The notes under the pieces are model-generated. The model had not been told where the DNA came from, did no database searches, and saw only the letters and a list, made by a program, of their open reading frames with translations. A program made the position numbers and the translations under genes. Positions 3,370 to 46,409 of a stretch of 64,000 nt of DNA are shown in pieces. Source of the DNA: a virus (lineage: Duplodnaviria > Caudoviricetes). Location: positions 3,370 to 67,369 of IMG/VR virus record IMGVR_UViG_3300045594_000343; one strand, written 5' to 3'. Position 1 is the stretch's first letter. Each line of letters opens with the position of its first letter.

Positions 3370-3931
3370 CTGTTTTTTCCACCTTTTCATCTTGTTTTGT
3401 TGAGTCATTTGCTTTTGATTCAGCCTGTTTTTGCTCCAATTCTTTTTGTGCATTTTTGATTTCTTCAATCAATTTATTAGAGGTTTGTTTTGTTGCTGTT
3501 AGTTGTTTTTGACATTTATTAATAAGTGCAAAAACATCAGGATAATACATGAGAATAATTAATTTTGTTGGAATTTCAATCTCATATTTAAATTTTGTTT
3601 CATCAATATGTGTTAAATTAATGTGGTTCGAATTTTGTTCTCCAAACATTAGCATTGCAGACCATTTTTCTAATCCTTGTTTGCTTTTCGTTAGAAAATA
3701 AACATCATTTAATTCAAAGTCAAATACAATGCTAACGTTATAATCATTTGAATCCAATACTCTAACGTAAATTTGCCCTTTAAACCCATTTAAATAATCC
3801 ATTGCACTTTTTAATTGTGCTTTAACAATTGCATTCGTTGAATTCAATTCTTCTATTGTATAATATTCACCTTGTGCAATATAACGATTAAAATCATTTT
3901 GTTCAATATTTAACTTAAGTTCATATGCCAT
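3359..3931 (-). CDS. Hypothetical protein with coiled-coil C-terminus
   Basis: 190-aa ORF abutting the stop of the NusG-like gene. Confidence 0.7.
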   Translation of the reverse strand: MAYELKLNIEQNDFNRYIAQGEYYTIEELNSTNAIVKAQLKSAMDYLNGFKGQIYVRVLDSNDYNVSIVFDFELNDVYFLTKSKQGLEKWSAMLMFGEQNSNHINLTHIDETKFKYEIEIPTKLIILMYYPDVFALINKCQKQLTATKQTSNKLIEEIKNAQKELEQKQAESKANDSTKQDEKVEKTDDE

Positions 3932-8655: not shown

Positions 8656-9984
8656 TTAATTATCTCCCTTCAACAATTCACATTCTTTAATATGAGCTTC
8701 AATATATGATTTTGTATCTTTATCAGTGTTATCCCATTCTTCTGGTATTTTTACAATTTTCATTCCATAGTTGTTTACTTTATTAACTGATTTATGATAA
8801 TTGCTATCATAATGCAGTTCTTGTGTAAATGAACTATAATCAACATGATGATGAATCCTAGAAAACTTAAACACTTTTGTGGCATATTGAGGATATTCTT
8901 TTACCAACATATCTGTTTTTGGTTCAGTTCCTTCTTTTGAATAGAACATATCATTGTTTCCACCATCAATACGTTGAGTAGTTAATTTATCTGCCAAGAA
9001 TGTATTTAACTGAAGTGTACAAAGTCCATCAGATAAAATATCTAGTGATATAATAGTGTCTTCATTATATCTTCCTCTCCATCTATATTTTAATTCATTA
9101 TTACACATTAAGATGCTATAGATTCTAGTATTCTTTACATAGGCAGGAGTTCTATCACATTCTTTACAGAACTTAGAATAATTAAGTCCTGCTAATCCAA
9201 TATTATCGAATCTTTCAACAAAATCTTCCATAGCTGAAAAACAAACACCTGTACGCATTTTATGTTTTATATTATGATTCAAATAATGAAAACCATCAAT
9301 ATTATCATCTAACACCCAACACCACTTATAACCTTTTTTCAAAGATATATCCATACAATAGTTTCTTGCAGCTCCTGGACCCTTTCCTTTTGTATCACCT
9401 AAATCATCCAAAGTGTTATAATTTTCTTTATATCGCATATCCAATTTAATTACTCTTGTATATTTCAAATCTTTAAATGCTTGCTGATATTCTTCAAATT
9501 CGTTTGGTTCAACGACAACATAATGACGGGTTTCCATTTTATTCAGCCATTTTACACTCAAACATTTAGATAGACTTGCTCTGCCTTTACTAACAATAAA
9601 GATTGGGTATCGTGGGTTTTTACCTCCAACAACACGAATCAACTTTTTGGTATGTTTCTCTAATGCAGGAAACCAAATGCTTTTAGTCCTATCTGTAATA
9701 TTCTGCTCAAAAGTTTCACTTAATTCATTTTCCGTAAAATCATCAACAATAAAATCAATCTTTGCATACGGTTCTACTTTCGGTTCAATAAATTCAGGTA
9801 AATCATTCCAATATGATTCCCATGAATTATTAATCTCCCTATTTGAATTGACAATTCGTTTATCAATAGATTCTTTTGTCTTTAAGTTGATTTCTTTAGT
9901 AAGATTTGTATAATTTCCATTTAATTTATGGTTAAGTTTATCTAAATCTTGTTTAGTTGAAAATCTACAAATTATCTTTCTCAT
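8656..9984 (-). CDS. TET-associated/GREB1-C-like glycosyltransferase with fused N-terminal domain
   Basis: YPIFIVSKGRA, VVVEPNEFEEY, GPGAARNY, WVLDDNI (DxD-like), RWRGRYNEDT and T...GGN motifs typical of phage TAGT-like enzymes. The N-terminal EQNITDRTKSIWFP segment is present. Confidence 0.65.
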   Translation of the reverse strand: MRKIICRFSTKQDLDKLNHKLNGNYTNLTKEINLKTKESIDKRIVNSNREINNSWESYWNDLPEFIEPKVEPYAKIDFIVDDFTENELSETFEQNITDRTKSIWFPALEKHTKKLIRVVGGKNPRYPIFIVSKGRASLSKCLSVKWLNKMETRHYVVVEPNEFEEYQQAFKDLKYTRVIKLDMRYKENYNTLDDLGDTKGKGPGAARNYCMDISLKKGYKWCWVLDDNIDGFHYLNHNIKHKMRTGVCFSAMEDFVERFDNIGLAGLNYSKFCKECDRTPAYVKNTRIYSILMCNNELKYRWRGRYNEDTIISLDILSDGLCTLQLNTFLADKLTTQRIDGGNNDMFYSKEGTEPKTDMLVKEYPQYATKVFKFSRIHHHVDYSSFTQELHYDSNYHKSVNKVNNYGMKIVKIPEEWDNTDKDTKSYIEAHIKECELLKGDN

Positions 9985-21843: not shown

Positions 21844-22003
21844 TTTTCAACACCTACCTATATTTATTTTTGAAAATGATATTTTATCATCCTCACAATT
21901 ATAATATATTTTTTCTATTTACTTATCGTCATTTTGTCTAGCAAGATACTAATAGAAAATGAAAAACGGCTGAATATTTTTAAATATCCAACCGTTTTTT
22001 TTG

Positions 22004-22932: not shown

Positions 22933-22961
22933 ATTATACCTCATAATTTGCTTTTTGTCAA
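22933..22961 (-). promoter_or_regulatory. Consensus sigma70 promoter
   Basis: TTGACA, 17 nt, TATAAT. Confidence 0.85.
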
Positions 22962-22984: not shown

Positions 22985-23482
22985 TTAATCTGTATATTTT
23001 AATACTATATTTTTTAATTCTCTTGTTTTATTCAAGTCAATAACCCTTTGATTATTTGACCCCCTAAATTTCAAGGTTAAATTGCGTTCTTTTAACACAA
23101 AAGCCCCATCAACTAATACATCAATGTTATTCAGTAATTCAATCTGATGTGAATCATTTCTTTTTAATAAATCCTCATATGTATATCCTGTATAACTCCA
23201 TACATTCAATCCTAGTGTGTGAATTTTTTTAGCAATATTAGCTAAAAATTCTGCTTGTAAAAATGGTTCTCCACCAGAAAATGTTACACCTGATAATAAT
23301 GGATTTTGTTTTAAATCTTTAATTATATCATTTTCACTAATTAACATATTTGTTTTAATTTCCCAAGTAGAGGGATTATGGCAACCGACACAATGATGTG
23401 GGCATCCTTGTGTAAATATTACATATCGAATTCCGTCACCATCAACAATGGATTCTTTAATAATTCCAGAACAATTTAACAT
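22985..23482 (-). CDS. nrdG: Anaerobic ribonucleotide reductase activating protein
   Basis: ESIVDGDGIRYVIFTQGCPHHCVGCHNP, GVTFSGGEPF, WSYTGY, DVLVDG.F, FRGSNNQRVID. True start is MLNCSG at 23482 (GAAGGA RBS). Confidence 0.92.
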   Translation of the reverse strand: MLNCSGIIKESIVDGDGIRYVIFTQGCPHHCVGCHNPSTWEIKTNMLISENDIIKDLKQNPLLSGVTFSGGEPFLQAEFLANIAKKIHTLGLNVWSYTGYTYEDLLKRNDSHQIELLNNIDVLVDGAFVLKERNLTLKFRGSNNQRVIDLNKTRELKNIVLKYTD

Positions 23483-23496
23483 AGGTGTCCTTCTTT

Positions 23497-24084
23497 CTAT
23501 TTCTGACATGTTTGACAAGACATTATCTGACATCCTTGACACGTTTGACAACCCTGACAAGCTTCACATCCTTGACACGTTTGACAACCTTCACAAGTTT
23601 GGCATCCCTCGCAACTTATCAACTGACAAGAAAATACCTGACAATCCTGACATTTTTGACATGATAATACTTGACAGGAAGGACCAGATTCACAACTTTG
23701 GCATCTTTTTTCTGTTGTTGAATATGATTGGCACTTACTTGTTTGACAATCATGTGTCTGACATGTAATGCTCTGACAGGTTTGAAACTGACAAGATTGA
23801 CAAGACCCTGAATATGAAGAACATTCAGCTTGACATGTTTGACAACAATCATTATTTACAATACAATCACAGTTTGTACTAAACGAGTTTTCTGCAAAAT
23901 TAATACATTTCTGTAACGAGCTTAATGTAATTGAATAAGGAACTTTATCATTGTTATCAAAATTAACACTTTTAAACCAATAAGGATTGTCTGGTCTTGT
24001 CTCATCATAAATTTGTACAGTATTTATTATATTAAAATATTGGGATACTATTGCACTTAAACTTGCTTTTTTTATATTTGCCAT
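23497..24084 (-). CDS. Cys-rich C-[Q/E]-repeat protein
   Basis: 195 aa with GCAGGTGG RBS. About 60 Cys-free N-terminal residues are followed by ~32 Cys, ending ...CEGCQTCEGCQTCQGCEACQGCQTCQGCQIMSCQTCQK. Confidence 0.8.
   Translation of the reverse strand: MANIKKASLSAIVSQYFNIINTVQIYDETRPDNPYWFKSVNFDNNDKVPYSITLSSLQKCINFAENSFSTNCDCIVNNDCCQTCQAECSSYSGSCQSCQFQTCQSITCQTHDCQTSKCQSYSTTEKRCQSCESGPSCQVLSCQKCQDCQVFSCQLISCEGCQTCEGCQTCQGCEACQGCQTCQGCQIMSCQTCQK
23500..23860. repeat. Imperfect 9- and 15-nt periodic repeats encoding the CQx units
   Basis: Recurrent tgaca/tcaca every 9 or 15 nt; catccttgacacgtttgacaacc occurs twice near 23530-23590. Confidence 0.75.
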
Positions 24085-24102: not shown

Positions 24103-24723
24103 TTATTTATCTTCATCCCAAACAGCAGTACATGGATTCCATTTATTGTTATAATAATATCTAATGACACTATCTCCATCTATCCATAATTTTGATGTAT
24201 TGGTAGGAGGGGTACTTGATACAATGAAACATTGAATATTAATATTTGTTGTTCCATCAAACACAATATCGTTTATTGTTGGAGATGCAGATAATTTATC
24301 TGCCAACCTAGAAGCATTTACTTTTGAAGCCAAAATATTACTAGTGGTTCTTGAAACCATTTTATCTACATCATTTTGAGTTGCCACTTCTTGTCCATTC
24401 AAAACAAACAACTTTCCTTTAATATATGCTTGTGTATCTGAAATCTTTAATGAATCGTTAACATAATCATTACTTACGATTAATTTTCCTGTACATAATC
24501 CTGCTGGTTTTCCTTCTGGAGTTTTTACCTCTAAAAAACTAGAGAACGTTGACGGCATAAATTTATCATCTGTTTTTCCATTTAATCTCAATGAATTACT
24601 GACAATTCCCTTAACCATATCTCCTGAAGTCATTGGGTATAAAACTGTCCATGTATTTGCTTTATCGTTATATTCTTTTAATGTTATTTTTTTTAATTTA
24701 TTTGCCATGTTATATTTCACCAC
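24103..24723 (-). CDS. Tail fibre/baseplate-associated structural protein
   Basis: W.VLYP.T N-terminal motif, SPTINDIVFDGTTNINI fibre repeat, VSSTPPTNTSKLWID C-terminal motif. Confidence 0.55.
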   Translation of the reverse strand: MVKYNMANKLKKITLKEYNDKANTWTVLYPMTSGDMVKGIVSNSLRLNGKTDDKFMPSTFSSFLEVKTPEGKPAGLCTGKLIVSNDYVNDSLKISDTQAYIKGKLFVLNGQEVATQNDVDKMVSRTTSNILASKVNASRLADKLSASPTINDIVFDGTTNINIQCFIVSSTPPTNTSKLWIDGDSVIRYYYNNKWNPCTAVWDEDK

Positions 24724-24782
24724 CGTATCACAAATAGAAAAGGGATTAAATTAATAATCCCTTTTCTAATAATATATATTTT

Positions 24783-25290: not shown

Positions 25291-26559
25291 TTACTCCTGG
25301 AAGTTTTCCTCTATAAATTTTCTCATCATTTCGTCATCAATAGGATATTTTTGCGCAAGCAATAATTTCGGTATTAATTCTTTTTTTTGAGAATCATCTA
25401 TGTCAATCGTTAATTGATTTATGAAATATGGTCTTGAACATAAATTAAAAAATAATCTTTTTGTTAATTCTTTAACTTTATTTTTATCTTCTTTATCATG
25501 CAATCTTGCATATATATGATTTACTTGAAGAATTAAATCCTTTAAGTAATGAATCCCTTGTTCCTGTTCAAAATCTGTAATTGAATCATATAATGCCTGT
25601 CTACATCCAAAATCATCTTTTTGTTCACACATGTTTTTATTTTTCATTAACCAACATATTGTGTGAATTTCCAAATCAGAAAAACTTTTGAATTTTGAAA
25701 GTTCATTTTTAGCATCCGATTCATTATCAAATAAAACAGACCATAATTCTAGCTCAATTTCCGAGGATTTTTTAAATTTATCCAAAACATCAAATCGTTC
25801 CGGTTCATATTCTTGTAACGTTAATAATATTTTTTGTTTTTCATTATTCACTAAACACTTAGAATTAAGAATTCCTATCTTTTGCATCAACTTAAATGTT
25901 TCTGAAGCATATTTTCCAACAATAATTTTTCTTAATACATTGCCAACCTGTTCACTAGGCATAAATCTTAAAAATCTCATAGTCGATTTAATGTTTTTAA
26001 GAACTTCTTTATCGATTTTAAATCCTGTTAAAGACATTAATTCAAATGCTTGTAATGTCCGTATTGGATATTCATAGAAAACCTCTTTCCCCGGAACAAT
26101 GGTTTTTATGACTCTATTCGTCATATCTAATCTTGCACTAACTCCATAGAAGTTTTCTTCCTCTTTATTTTTAGCAACGCAATTTATTGTAAACACTTTT
26201 CTATCAAAATCTTGTTCTAATGTATCTACATATTCAACAATGGGAACGCTTAAAAACTGTTCAGGTTCTTTAATATAATATTGTTCTTTATGAAAACTTT
26301 CAATTTGAAATTCTTCATTAGCAAAATTAACATATACAATCATGGAATTATTTTCATCAACTCTATGATTAGGAAAAAATTTACAAATTTCTTCGGTTTT
26401 TGCATTAGTAACAATTGTAGTTTTGAATGTTTTTAAATGTCCTTTCCCTTTATATATTTCGTTATATAATTCATTACGACATTTATCACCATTATAATAA
26501 GCTTCAAACTTTAAATTATTTAAAATTGTCAAGATGGCTTTTGCAGATTCTTGCATCAA
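25291..26559 (-). CDS. CCA-adding enzyme/poly(A) polymerase-like protein with degenerate catalytic motifs
   Basis: AYYNGDKCRNEL (cf. YLVGGAVRDLL), TIVTNA.TEEI..FF, DFDRKVFTINCVA (cf. DLARRDFTINAMA), EYPIRTLQAF (cf. EDPLRILRA). Confidence 0.75.
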   Translation of the reverse strand: MMQESAKAILTILNNLKFEAYYNGDKCRNELYNEIYKGKGHLKTFKTTIVTNAKTEEICKFFPNHRVDENNSMIVYVNFANEEFQIESFHKEQYYIKEPEQFLSVPIVEYVDTLEQDFDRKVFTINCVAKNKEEENFYGVSARLDMTNRVIKTIVPGKEVFYEYPIRTLQAFELMSLTGFKIDKEVLKNIKSTMRFLRFMPSEQVGNVLRKIIVGKYASETFKLMQKIGILNSKCLVNNEKQKILLTLQEYEPERFDVLDKFKKSSEIELELWSVLFDNESDAKNELSKFKSFSDLEIHTICWLMKNKNMCEQKDDFGCRQALYDSITDFEQEQGIHYLKDLILQVNHIYARLHDKEDKNKVKELTKRLFFNLCSRPYFINQLTIDIDDSQKKELIPKLLLAQKYPIDDEMMRKFIEENFQE

Positions 26560-44873: not shown

Positions 44874-45728
44874 TTACTTACACAATTTAGAATTAAGATT
44901 AAATTTTTTCATAGTTAAACATTCATTTAATGTTTGTTTATGAATATTTCCCCACTCAGTTCTATATTGTTTACAAACCTCACAAGGAACGATATATCCA
45001 TCTGATGTAACAACAAATTTTTCTCTACCTGCGGTACAACAATTATTCAAACCAAGCATATATCTTAATGGATTCCCCAATCTAATGTTGATTTTTTTCT
45101 TATCAATAGAATTAATAAATTGAATTAAATCAGTATTTGTTGGCAATAAATCTTCAGTACATCTTCCTTGTGCAACTGCTTTAAGAATAGATATTCTATT
45201 TACATTATGACTTAATGCAAAATTAATCACTTCAGAAAATCCAATCAAATTAACAACTAATGGCACAAAATGTAATTCAATATTAGTGTATTTTTCAACA
45301 TTTTTTATACTTTGTTGAAAAATATCCCATCCGTTTTTGGTTTGCGATATATAATTATAATCATTTCCAACACCATGACAGCTAAAAATAATTTTATCAA
45401 ACATTTTATTATCAATCACTTGTTTGATTTGTTGTTCTGATATTGGATTTCCATTAATATTGCCACAAGTATAAATACTAAACTTTATGTTTTCTGATTG
45501 AAGTAAATTTAATATTTTAAAAATATCAGGATGTAGAAATGGTTCTCCACCAGATATTGATATATGACAGTCTTTATCAATGTAAGATAAAGATTTTAAT
45601 TGTTTAATTAAATCTTTTATTTGTTCAAATGATAATATCGTTGTATCTTTTGCAGAAGAATTTGAAGAACAATGTATACAATGTTGCATACATCTATTTA
45701 ATATTTCTAGTGTAATACTATTGAACAA
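44874..45728 (-). CDS. Radical SAM protein with SPASM/Twitch-like C-terminal domain
   Basis: CMQHCIHC (CxxxCxxC), ISGGEPFLHPD, C-terminal CCTAG...V..DG.I.PCEVC...WGNI. TTG start abuts the thyX stop. Confidence 0.85.
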   Translation of the reverse strand: MFNSITLEILNRCMQHCIHCSSNSSAKDTTILSFEQIKDLIKQLKSLSYIDKDCHISISGGEPFLHPDIFKILNLLQSENIKFSIYTCGNINGNPISEQQIKQVIDNKMFDKIIFSCHGVGNDYNYISQTKNGWDIFQQSIKNVEKYTNIELHFVPLVVNLIGFSEVINFALSHNVNRISILKAVAQGRCTEDLLPTNTDLIQFINSIDKKKINIRLGNPLRYMLGLNNCCTAGREKFVVTSDGYIVPCEVCKQYRTEWGNIHKQTLNECLTMKKFNLNSKLCK

Positions 45729-46409
45729 TTAAACTTCACTTCTTACATTTTCTTTTGATACAAACTTCTTATATAAATCCTCAAAAAATACAGGATAACG
45801 TTCATACATCATTTTTAATAGTGTTGTCATTGACATTCTAATGTCAAGTTGTGCATGGGAATCACAACGCAACTCAAAAATATGTCTCCATTCTCTAATA
45901 TTAGCACCCATAACAATAGTCGTTGCTGTGCATTGTGGCAATACTGACCGTGCTTCTTCTGGCTTGCATCCCAATTCAATTAATTTAAAATAAGATTTTT
46001 CAGATTGTGAACAAGCATCAAACCATAAATCAAACTTATCTTTATCACAACGACCATCTTCTGTTAACATTCCCTGTGGAATAACAAAACCAACGCTATG
46101 ATTAAATTTATCTTTACTATAATTTACATAACGCATAGATTCGATTGCGAAGCTTGACAATCTCTGTCTTGTGATTTGCCCCATATAACTTCTATCTGCT
46201 ACAATTTTAACAGTAATATTATTCATTTCAATTGGCGAACCATGACCAACTGCAATCAATCGTCTTGCCAATTTTTCTGCATCTTCCATATTATTATTAT
46301 TATCCGTAGCACTCTTATAACAATTCCTAGCTGCGGTATTAAATGTCATTAATACTGTTTCATAAGATGGTGGATAAACAAATTCTACACTCGGATTTAC
46401 AATGTTCAT
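45729..46409 (-). CDS. thyX: Flavin-dependent thymidylate synthase
   Basis: GHGSPIE, RQRLSSFAIESMRYV (RHR-x7-S variant), PEEARSVLP, NIREWRHIFELR, HAQ.DIR. Confidence 0.88.
   Translation of the reverse strand: MNIVNPSVEFVYPPSYETVLMTFNTAARNCYKSATDNNNNMEDAEKLARRLIAVGHGSPIEMNNITVKIVADRSYMGQITRQRLSSFAIESMRYVNYSKDKFNHSVGFVIPQGMLTEDGRCDKDKFDLWFDACSQSEKSYFKLIELGCKPEEARSVLPQCTATTIVMGANIREWRHIFELRCDSHAQLDIRMSMTTLLKMMYERYPVFFEDLYKKFVSKENVRSEV

Follow-up and report, generated by a model that had tools for sequence, protein, structure and literature searches.

Does the cysteine-rich protein encoded at positions 23497-24084 of a caudoviricete genome fragment serve as a substrate for radical S-adenosylmethionine (SAM) enzymes, and what would such a modified protein be for? 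The fragment comes from a giant phage of gut type and is a stretch of 64,000 nucleotides (positions 3,370 to 67,369 of IMG/VR record IMGVR_UViG_3300045594_000343), which was analyzed as a whole and is called the window here. In the protein, cysteine is mostly followed by glutamine or glutamate, and we refer to it as the Cys-Gln protein. A preliminary description had proposed that it is cross-linked by a radical SAM/SPASM enzyme encoded far away in the same window, yielding either a virion appendage or an effector resembling a peptide made on the ribosome and modified after translation (RiPP). It is evident from our analysis that the gene has relatives in many phages and prophages, and that these relatives lie almost invariably beside radical SAM genes. 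On balance, we think it somewhat probable that the Cys-Gln repeat region is a fiber-type module whose cysteines become thioether bridges through PapB-like radical SAM/SPASM enzymes.

The Cys-Gln protein has 32 cysteines among its 195 residues (16%), a density approached by no other open reading frame (ORF) in the window. The first cysteine is residue 60, which leaves residues 1-59 free of cysteine. Glutamine follows 23 of the 32 cysteines and glutamate follows four (27/32 for either), and the Cys-to-Cys distances are mainly 3 or 5. Ten cysteines in succession at a spacing of 3 make up a perfect Cxx run at residues 158-185. Since the 18-nucleotide unit that encodes this run is tandemly repeated, the Cys-Gln repeat can lengthen by duplication. 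The preliminary description had this right: a leader-like stretch of about 60 residues lacking cysteine, some 32 cysteines, nearly all followed by Gln or Glu, a perfect Cxx run, and an overall architecture of leader-like N-terminal domain plus Cys-repeat core.

Full-length homologs with 81%, 65% and 45% identity were found in a search of 5.8 billion proteins. All 32 cysteines are kept in both of the homologs that were aligned (81% and 45% identical), and Gln and Glu replace each other at the position after Cys among homologs. The ratio of nonsynonymous to synonymous substitution rates (dN/dS) is 0.12 against the 81% homolog, at a dS of about 1. The Cys-Gln ORF is a real gene under purifying selection; the possibility of a chance ORF is ruled out by the conservation among homologs together with this ratio. 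No family model in Pfam, PHROG or NCBIfam matches the protein, and ESM Atlas gave no usable match. Searches of 50,697 phage records with blastn and tblastn also returned no match to the gene, with a low-complexity filter that probably masks the repeats.

The relatives were collected with a profile (A2) of the N-terminal domain (N-domain), and the family is defined here by this profile alone, without the repeat region. With a limit of E ≤ 1e-3, the profile detects 113 cluster representatives among 1.84 billion proteins; at E ≤ 1e-10 the count is 40. It recovers the close homolog P0001 at 3.9e-19. A scan of IMG/VR revealed 33 further Cys-Gln loci. In two alignments (A1 and A2), the family N-domain closes with the motif L-Q-x-[AC]-I-N-x-x-E-x-x-F-S-x-N-C-[ND]-C, and the weaker homologs of 109-137 aa share this common N-domain, followed by a shorter Cys-Gln run. 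The window protein carries both the two-helix N-domain, closing with L-x-x-A-I-N-x-L-E-x-x-F-S-x-N-C-(x)-C, and the C-[QE]-x / C-[QE]-x-x-x run of the family. Judged by these two features, it belongs to an unnamed phage and prophage family of Cys-Gln repeat proteins. Most members are 90-160 aa long, the repeat region varies in length across the family, and about eleven distinct groups can be told apart by N-domain type among the analyzed loci. In 78 members, Gln or Glu follows 58% of the 1110 cysteines, and a spacing of 3 is the commonest. The median is 13 cysteines per member, and the 32 of the window protein are near the top of the range. Several loci contain two Cys-Gln paralogs with related N-domains, one of 85-106 aa and one of 112-137 aa (L004 1278-1535, L006 532-801 and L008 285-605); there is only one Cys-Gln gene in the window.

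AlphaFold2 modeling of the window protein from a 10-sequence alignment gave a mean pLDDT (predicted local distance difference test) score of 38. With a 78-sequence alignment, residues 1-70 were modeled at pLDDT 75-87, with helices at residues 6-22 and 51-69. A fold search with the latter model returned generic helical hairpins only (Z ≤ 6), none of them informative, and a sequence search of the PDB with the N-domain profile gave a single match at chance level (E 0.047). The N-domain may act as a leader or may serve for docking.

The linkage of the family to radical SAM genes is near-obligate. Short members are found in four independent metagenomic contexts, and in each of these (4/4) the Cys-Gln gene has between one and four radical SAM genes beside it. 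There are three such genes in L003, downstream of baseplate J, wedge and collar-fiber genes; four in L004; four in L006, together with a ThiF-like gene; and one in L008, which is on a short contig. Genes with the PF04055 domain are present in all 32 related IMG/VR records, and proviruses of 40-55 kb typically have exactly two, flanking the Cys-Gln gene. When ORFs were clustered, a radical SAM cluster was found no more than 6 kb from the Cys-Gln gene in 35 of 39 loci; outside the lineage of the window phage, PapB-like radical SAM/SPASM genes are within this distance in 35 of 35 clustered loci. Six further loci, from metagenomes or metagenome-assembled genomes, are long enough to judge, and in all six the gene is adjoined by an ORF of radical SAM type with CxxxCxxC or by a match to a radical SAM enzyme linked to Cys-Gln genes.

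The best NCBIfam match of these family-linked enzymes is the PapB ranthipeptide maturase, at 91 bits at best (cut-off 340), followed by the geopeptide, QhpD, CcpM and SCIFF maturases, all far below cut-off. Their SPASM domain scores 33.3 bits against a cut-off of 27. In phage libraries they correspond to phrog_1802, annotated just as 'radical SAM domain-containing protein', and the related enzymes in the cultured phages Achromobacter JWF and Ralstonia RSP15 and in Erwinia and Campylobacter phages have generic annotation only. Thus, the link to radical SAM enzymes drawn in the preliminary description is supported for the family, whose members are almost invariably next to maturase-like genes, but not for the particular enzyme with which the window protein had been paired.

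The family module is located after baseplate and tail-fiber genes and before lysis genes, and the Cys-Gln gene usually comes directly after tail-fiber genes. In complete proviruses, a baseplate-type gene is followed by genes for a tail fiber (499 aa, many PHROG tail-fiber matches), a radical SAM enzyme, a small protein, the Cys-Gln protein, a Hint-like protein, a 280-aa protein and another radical SAM enzyme, and later by an amidase endolysin gene. In the window, as in L003 and L018, the Cys-Gln gene comes directly after a gene of tail-fiber type, and the earlier observation to this effect is borne out. The C-terminal motif P-P-T-N-T-S-K-L-W-I-D of the window's fiber-like protein also occurs in the fiber gene preceding the Cys-Gln gene of the unrelated locus L003, and the protein has BLAST matches to neighbors of the Cys-Gln genes in L003 and L008. 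The fiber-like gene is syntenic in L001, L002, L011 and L012.

Domain fusions point in the same direction as gene order. In P0044, the Cys-Gln region is directly followed by a Peptidase_S74 domain (53.6 bits, cut-off 22). Peptidase_S74 is an intramolecular chaperone that folds trimeric fibers or spikes and then cleaves itself off. In P0100, P0109 and P0106, F5/8-type-C-like or glycine-rich parts stand ahead of a leader-like helix and the Cys-Gln tail, all three being assigned partly by eye from the sequence (P0100 has no Pfam match, and the matches of P0109 and P0106 are sub-threshold). The Cys-Gln region of P0049, P0069 and P0085 runs into Hint-like domains with sub-threshold Pfam matches, and P0057 has a similar C-terminal extension that was read from the sequence and has no Pfam match. 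The window protein itself ends right after its last C-Q unit and has no Peptidase_S74 domain. Because of the position after tail-fiber genes and the Peptidase_S74 and fiber-type fusions, the family protein is probably a radical-SAM-modified fiber module, probably stapled by thioethers, rather than a secreted RiPP. Between the two outcomes that had been envisaged, the same grounds favor a 'virion appendage' over a 'RiPP-like effector'.

L018 (10196-10600) and 26 other prophage loci have a Hint-like domain, of the intein/hedgehog type, after the Cys-Gln region. It is either a separate ORF of 131-199 aa or a C-terminal fusion (the P0049, P0057, P0069 and P0085 cases), and its Pfam matches are below cut-off. 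The domain suggests that thioester-mediated cleavage or ligation might take place at the end of the Cys-Gln tail.

These observations could be accommodated as follows. The repeat region would be a fiber-like, probably oligomeric module attached to a tail-fiber-type protein. PapB-like radical SAM/SPASM enzymes would convert its cysteines to thioether bridges of the ranthionine type, which are non-reducible and lead to the side chains of nearby Gln/Glu, and the N-domain would be the recognition or docking element for these enzymes. The thioether part of this proposal is drawn from the resemblance of the enzymes to PapB-, QhpD- and SCIFF-type maturases and from the chemistry of PapB and CrpC. PapB crosslinks have a C-X3-acceptor spacing. 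In the C-Q-x-C-Q register each Cys has a Gln at +1 and at +4, and the interchange of Gln and Glu after Cys would fit a side-chain carbon as acceptor. We infer the chemistry in the phage proteins (thioethers, Gln as acceptor), the relation of enzyme to substrate, the oligomeric state and the presence in the virion. The fuller picture, a virion fiber or whisker of Cys-Gln repeats with dozens of Cys-to-Gln thioethers in phages of anaerobes, matured here in trans by far-off enzymes, is one that we hold tentatively and would not yet call probable.

Several known systems resemble parts of this picture. The radical SAM/SPASM enzyme CrpC installs ranthionine crosslinks on CrpA, a protein-sized Cys-rich substrate of Methanococcus voltae; the CrpA repeats contain C-x-x-Q/D, and CrpB is a paralogous partner with the same N-terminus (PMC13692751, 2026). 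The phage family shares with the CrpA/CrpC (TIGR04463) system a protein-sized substrate (presumed in the phages), a conserved N-terminus and C-terminal Cys-rich repeats, CrpA/CrpC having an adjacent SPASM enzyme; several phage loci likewise have two Cys-Gln paralogs, as CrpA has CrpB. However, CrpA is archaeal and cellular, it shows no sequence homology to the window protein, and its repeats are of 17 residues, in contrast to the 3- or 5-residue C-Q-x units in phage. One of the enzymes in L003 matches TIGR04463 at E 1e-10, far below the cut-off, and in the window no enzyme of this or another maturase type adjoins the Cys-Gln gene.

PapB makes thioether links from Cys to Asp/Glu (PMC9413430). 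Among NCBIfam models, that of the PapB/freyrasin system (NF047865) is the one that the enzymes flanking the family genes match best, and C-Q-x-C-Q places Gln/Glu four residues past Cys. It differs in that the score of the flanking enzymes (91 bits) is well short of 340, in that the phage substrate would be a fiber-module protein of 90-360 aa rather than a short secreted peptide, and in its acceptor, which is Asp/Glu in PapB and would be mostly Gln in the phage family. To our knowledge, there is no report of Gln as an acceptor. The SCIFF system (CteA-CteB, TIGR03973/TIGR03974) also has a Cys-rich core after a leader and thioether formation by a SPASM enzyme, and family enzymes match TIGR03974 weakly. 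SCIFF precursors are about 45 aa long with six cysteines, whereas the window protein has 195 aa, 32 cysteines, no NCBIfam match (TIGR03973 included) and another gene context. Fibers assisted by Peptidase_S74 (PF13884) are approached by P0044, unlike the window protein; we know of no such fiber that is rich in Cys-Gln. A literature search found no paper on Cys-Gln repeat proteins or on radical-SAM modification of phage structural proteins.

The lineage of the window departs from the general pattern. The four of 39 loci without an adjoining PapB-like enzyme (L001, L002, L011 and L012) are the window's own lineage. Of these, L011 is part of a 281-kb record (G001) judged 98% complete. G001 and positions 2-29 kb of the window share a syntenic block of about 28 kb, including the fiber-like, Cys-Gln, NrdG (anaerobic ribonucleotide reductase activase), 296-aa and holin-like genes. 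The order of the Cys-Gln and NrdG genes is kept in the window, L001, L002, G001 and G002, with Cys-Gln proteins only 31-33% identical. G001 also encodes a second Cys-Gln protein of 305 aa with 27 Cys, at about 65 kb. Two enzymes are encoded beside it, one of 374 aa and one of 363 aa that shares 46% identity with the conserved Cys-Gln-linked enzyme. These three genes, at 64.8-68.5 kb, are about 70 kb from the syntenic block, counted across the ends of the linear record. Since G001 has this second gene together with enzymes, maturation in trans is plausible for the window lineage. The SPASM protein of the window is also found on a 430,772-bp contig of the same or a near-identical phage (L061; JGI 3300051660 Ga0527070_013), where the window corresponds to roughly 64.7-128.7 kb, so the window would be about 15% of a megaphage genome, and the CheckV completeness of 14% is consistent with this share of a genome of about 431 kb. 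If the window protein is modified, then this would be done in trans by enzymes encoded elsewhere in that genome.

Several findings weigh against thioether stapling by PapB-like enzymes, most of them in this lineage. PapB-like enzymes are absent from the 64-kb window and also from the 67-kb record of which it is part, and all five members of the window lineage are exactly the loci that have no adjacent maturase. A search with the 363-aa enzyme of G001 did not return a contig of about 431 kb among its best 120 matches, a weak sign that the window phage may have no close ortholog of that enzyme. Dialister, Phascolarctobacterium and Sporomusaceae are among the hosts named for related enzymes. Many of the 35 linked loci are near-identical prophages, so that independent observations amount to something closer to a dozen. 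In the AlphaFold2 monomer model from 78 sequences, the pLDDT of the repeat region is below 50, without a confident fold. The case in this window is weaker than that in phages with enzyme and substrate adjacent.

The same findings bear on the main rival explanation, in which the protein is unmodified and its CxxC ladder chelates Zn, Fe, Cu or iron-sulfur clusters, either to rigidify a fiber or as a supply or buffer of metal or electrons serving the neighboring iron-sulfur enzymes (NrdG, or radical SAM enzymes in other phages). A spacing of repeated C-x-x-C is classic for metal binding, no apo fold can be predicted for the repeat region, and the gene adjoins that of the iron-sulfur enzyme NrdG in the window lineage. 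CrpA-type clusters have been tied to iron/sulfur acquisition by their authors (PMC13692751). This explanation is more credible here than in other phages because no maturase is near. It nevertheless leaves the conserved Gln/Glu after Cys unexplained, and the flanking enzymes of the family most resemble maturases that crosslink peptides. The Peptidase_S74 and fiber-type fusions and the position after tail-fiber genes also sit badly with a storage protein or electron carrier, although they are compatible with a metal-stabilized fiber. We regard metal binding by an unmodified protein as rather unlikely. Cross-linking by disulfides instead is considered unlikely for a phage of anaerobes that would be assembled in the cytoplasm. 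A secreted antimicrobial or effector of the RiPP type, released by cleavage of the leader and export of the core, would agree with the leader-plus-core architecture and with the maturase-like neighbors in relatives; we give it very little credence, since the Cys-Gln modules examined showed neither a peptidase nor an exporter, the module is in the tail-fiber region, and cores of up to 115 residues with fiber-domain and fiber-chaperone fusions are unlike known RiPPs.

Two enzymes encoded in the window might also be considered as partners of the Cys-Gln protein. The pairing with the SPASM enzyme, advanced in the preliminary description, has in its favor that this is the sole peptide-maturase-like gene (radical SAM plus SPASM) in the fragment and that its weak best NCBIfam matches include the peptide maturases ScmE, HxsC and MftC; TIGR04463 is absent from the best 25 of its 48 NCBIfam matches. 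The enzyme is indeed a radical SAM/SPASM protein, but not the only radical SAM protein of the window, as NrdG, overlooked in the preliminary description, is encoded directly downstream of the Cys-Gln gene. The SPASM enzyme is 21 kb away from that gene, directly downstream of a ThyX-type thymidylate synthase (PF02511; the two together at window 44874-46409), near genes for an HD-type dNTPase, an NT5C nucleotidase, SSB and SbcCD, and upstream of the gene for a 1394-aa fn3 protein. It resembles Cys-Gln-linked enzymes at the superfamily level only (best phmmer E 2e-5), falls in different PHROG families from them, and has no relatives in viral_contigs. Two relatives that were examined, one in a bacterial CBASS/Fic neighborhood and one beside an insertion sequence (IS) element, are not next to Cys-Gln proteins. 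Co-occurrence of the two genes across phages also breaks down in G001, which keeps the Cys-Gln ortholog and has no ortholog of the enzyme. The pairing is thus improbable. In this context, the enzyme might as plausibly modify nucleotides or DNA as mature a peptide. Phage thymidine hypermodification is known to have a radical SAM enzyme (PMC8989533), though one of another, SPL-like type.

The other candidate is NrdG, which might act on or need the Cys-Gln protein, and this would explain why the two genes stay adjacent in the five genomes. Its ATG (at 23482, taken from a 165-aa gene call in L001) is 14 nucleotides past the Cys-Gln stop codon, with no predicted terminator between. However, NrdG scores 166.7 bits against the TIGR02491 equivalog model of NCBIfam (cut-off 126.1), which makes the downstream gene a genuine NrdG. 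There is no NrdD in the 67-kb record of the window phage. G001 carries NrdD at 218-223 kb, where it is in pieces, and lacks any further NrdG; the gene adjoining the Cys-Gln gene is therefore a real NrdG that is needed there as activase. The five genomes share one syntenic block; the adjacency is therefore a single inherited arrangement and not independent evidence of function. Elsewhere the NrdG and Cys-Gln genes are far apart (about 65 kb in G005), and NrdG has no SPASM domain. A functional tie between the two proteins is accordingly highly improbable. In the NrdD region of G001 (218087-223410, L056), in-frame stops separate at least five pieces, which suggests introns, inteins or insertions of homing endonucleases.

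Small bacterial peptides are known to be stapled through thioethers by radical SAM enzymes, as, since 2026, is one archaeal protein. If thioether stapling of Cys-Gln modules is true, then the stapling of phage fibers would be a new kind of post-translational modification of virions and would give a non-reducible, protease-resistant appendage. It would also provide a function for a recurrent unannotated phage cassette (phrog_1802 and its neighbors), and the cassette would be a possible source of enzymes that crosslink protein-sized substrates, maybe with Gln as a new acceptor. The value of this window is more modest: its protein is the most Cys-rich member seen here, and its lineage, where the presumed substrate is uncoupled from the enzymes, is a natural test case for whether the modification is essential.

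Table 1. Positions of the Cys-Gln gene, its parts and other features in the window.
Feature	Position	Strand	Basis and remarks
Cys-Gln repeat protein	23497-24084	minus	ORF with ATG start, 195 aa; stop codon 23497-23499
N-terminal domain, residues 1-79, two predicted helices; leader or docking candidate	23848-24084	minus	alignments A1 and A2; AlphaFold2
Cys-Gln/Glu repeat region, residues 80-195; presumed modified core or fiber shaft	23500-23847	minus	spacings of 3 and 5
Tandem repeat, 18-nucleotide unit (two C-Q-x triplets), 4.4 copies, 75% matches	23528-23607		encodes the perfect C-x-x run
Fiber-like protein, 206 aa, 18-nucleotide gap upstream of the Cys-Gln gene	24103-24723	minus	weak PHROG tail-fiber and tail matches
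NrdG, radical SAM activase of anaerobic ribonucleotide reductase, 165 aa	22985-23482	minus	Fer4_12 9.6e-41; phrog_626
Terminator-like hairpin just upstream of the fiber-like gene	24735-24768	minus	consensus scan only
Terminator-like hairpin	21962-21999	minus	consensus scan only
tRNA nucleotidyltransferase, CCA-adding type, two genes upstream of the fiber-like gene	25291-26559	minus	PolyA_pol head and RNA-binding domains just over Pfam cut-off; phrog_2244
Radical SAM/SPASM enzyme, maturase candidate of the preliminary description	44874-45728	minus	Pfam Radical_SAM and SPASM

The two terminator-like hairpins found by the consensus scan enclose the fiber-like, Cys-Gln, NrdG and 296-aa genes (Table 1), and NrdG is probably in the same transcription unit as the Cys-Gln gene. 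A perfect sigma-70 consensus (TTGACA, 17 nucleotides, TATAAT) at 22933-22961 on the minus strand lies a short way upstream of the 296-aa gene, the next one after nrdG. Comparison by hhalign of the 296-aa, fiber-like and 115-aa products of the window with the conserved helper, Hint-like and 234-aa proteins of the prophage modules gave no sign of a relation (probability ≤ 0.3%).

The region around the SPASM enzyme differs among variant contigs. An IS200-type Y1 transposase is inserted next to ThyX in variant contigs, and the gene calls of L061 and L062 give a 256-aa gene at this place a length of 167 aa. The 1394-aa fn3 gene is split variously, into 132 + 1259, 597 + 640 or 448 + 939 aa. Elsewhere in the window, a 442-aa protein (8656-9984, minus strand) is 48% identical to proteins of T4-like phages of Tenacibaculum, Aeromonas and Vibrio. 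Its matches are named beta-glucosyl-HMC-alpha-glucosyltransferase in RefSeq, a putative annotation that may be a hint of DNA hypermodification.

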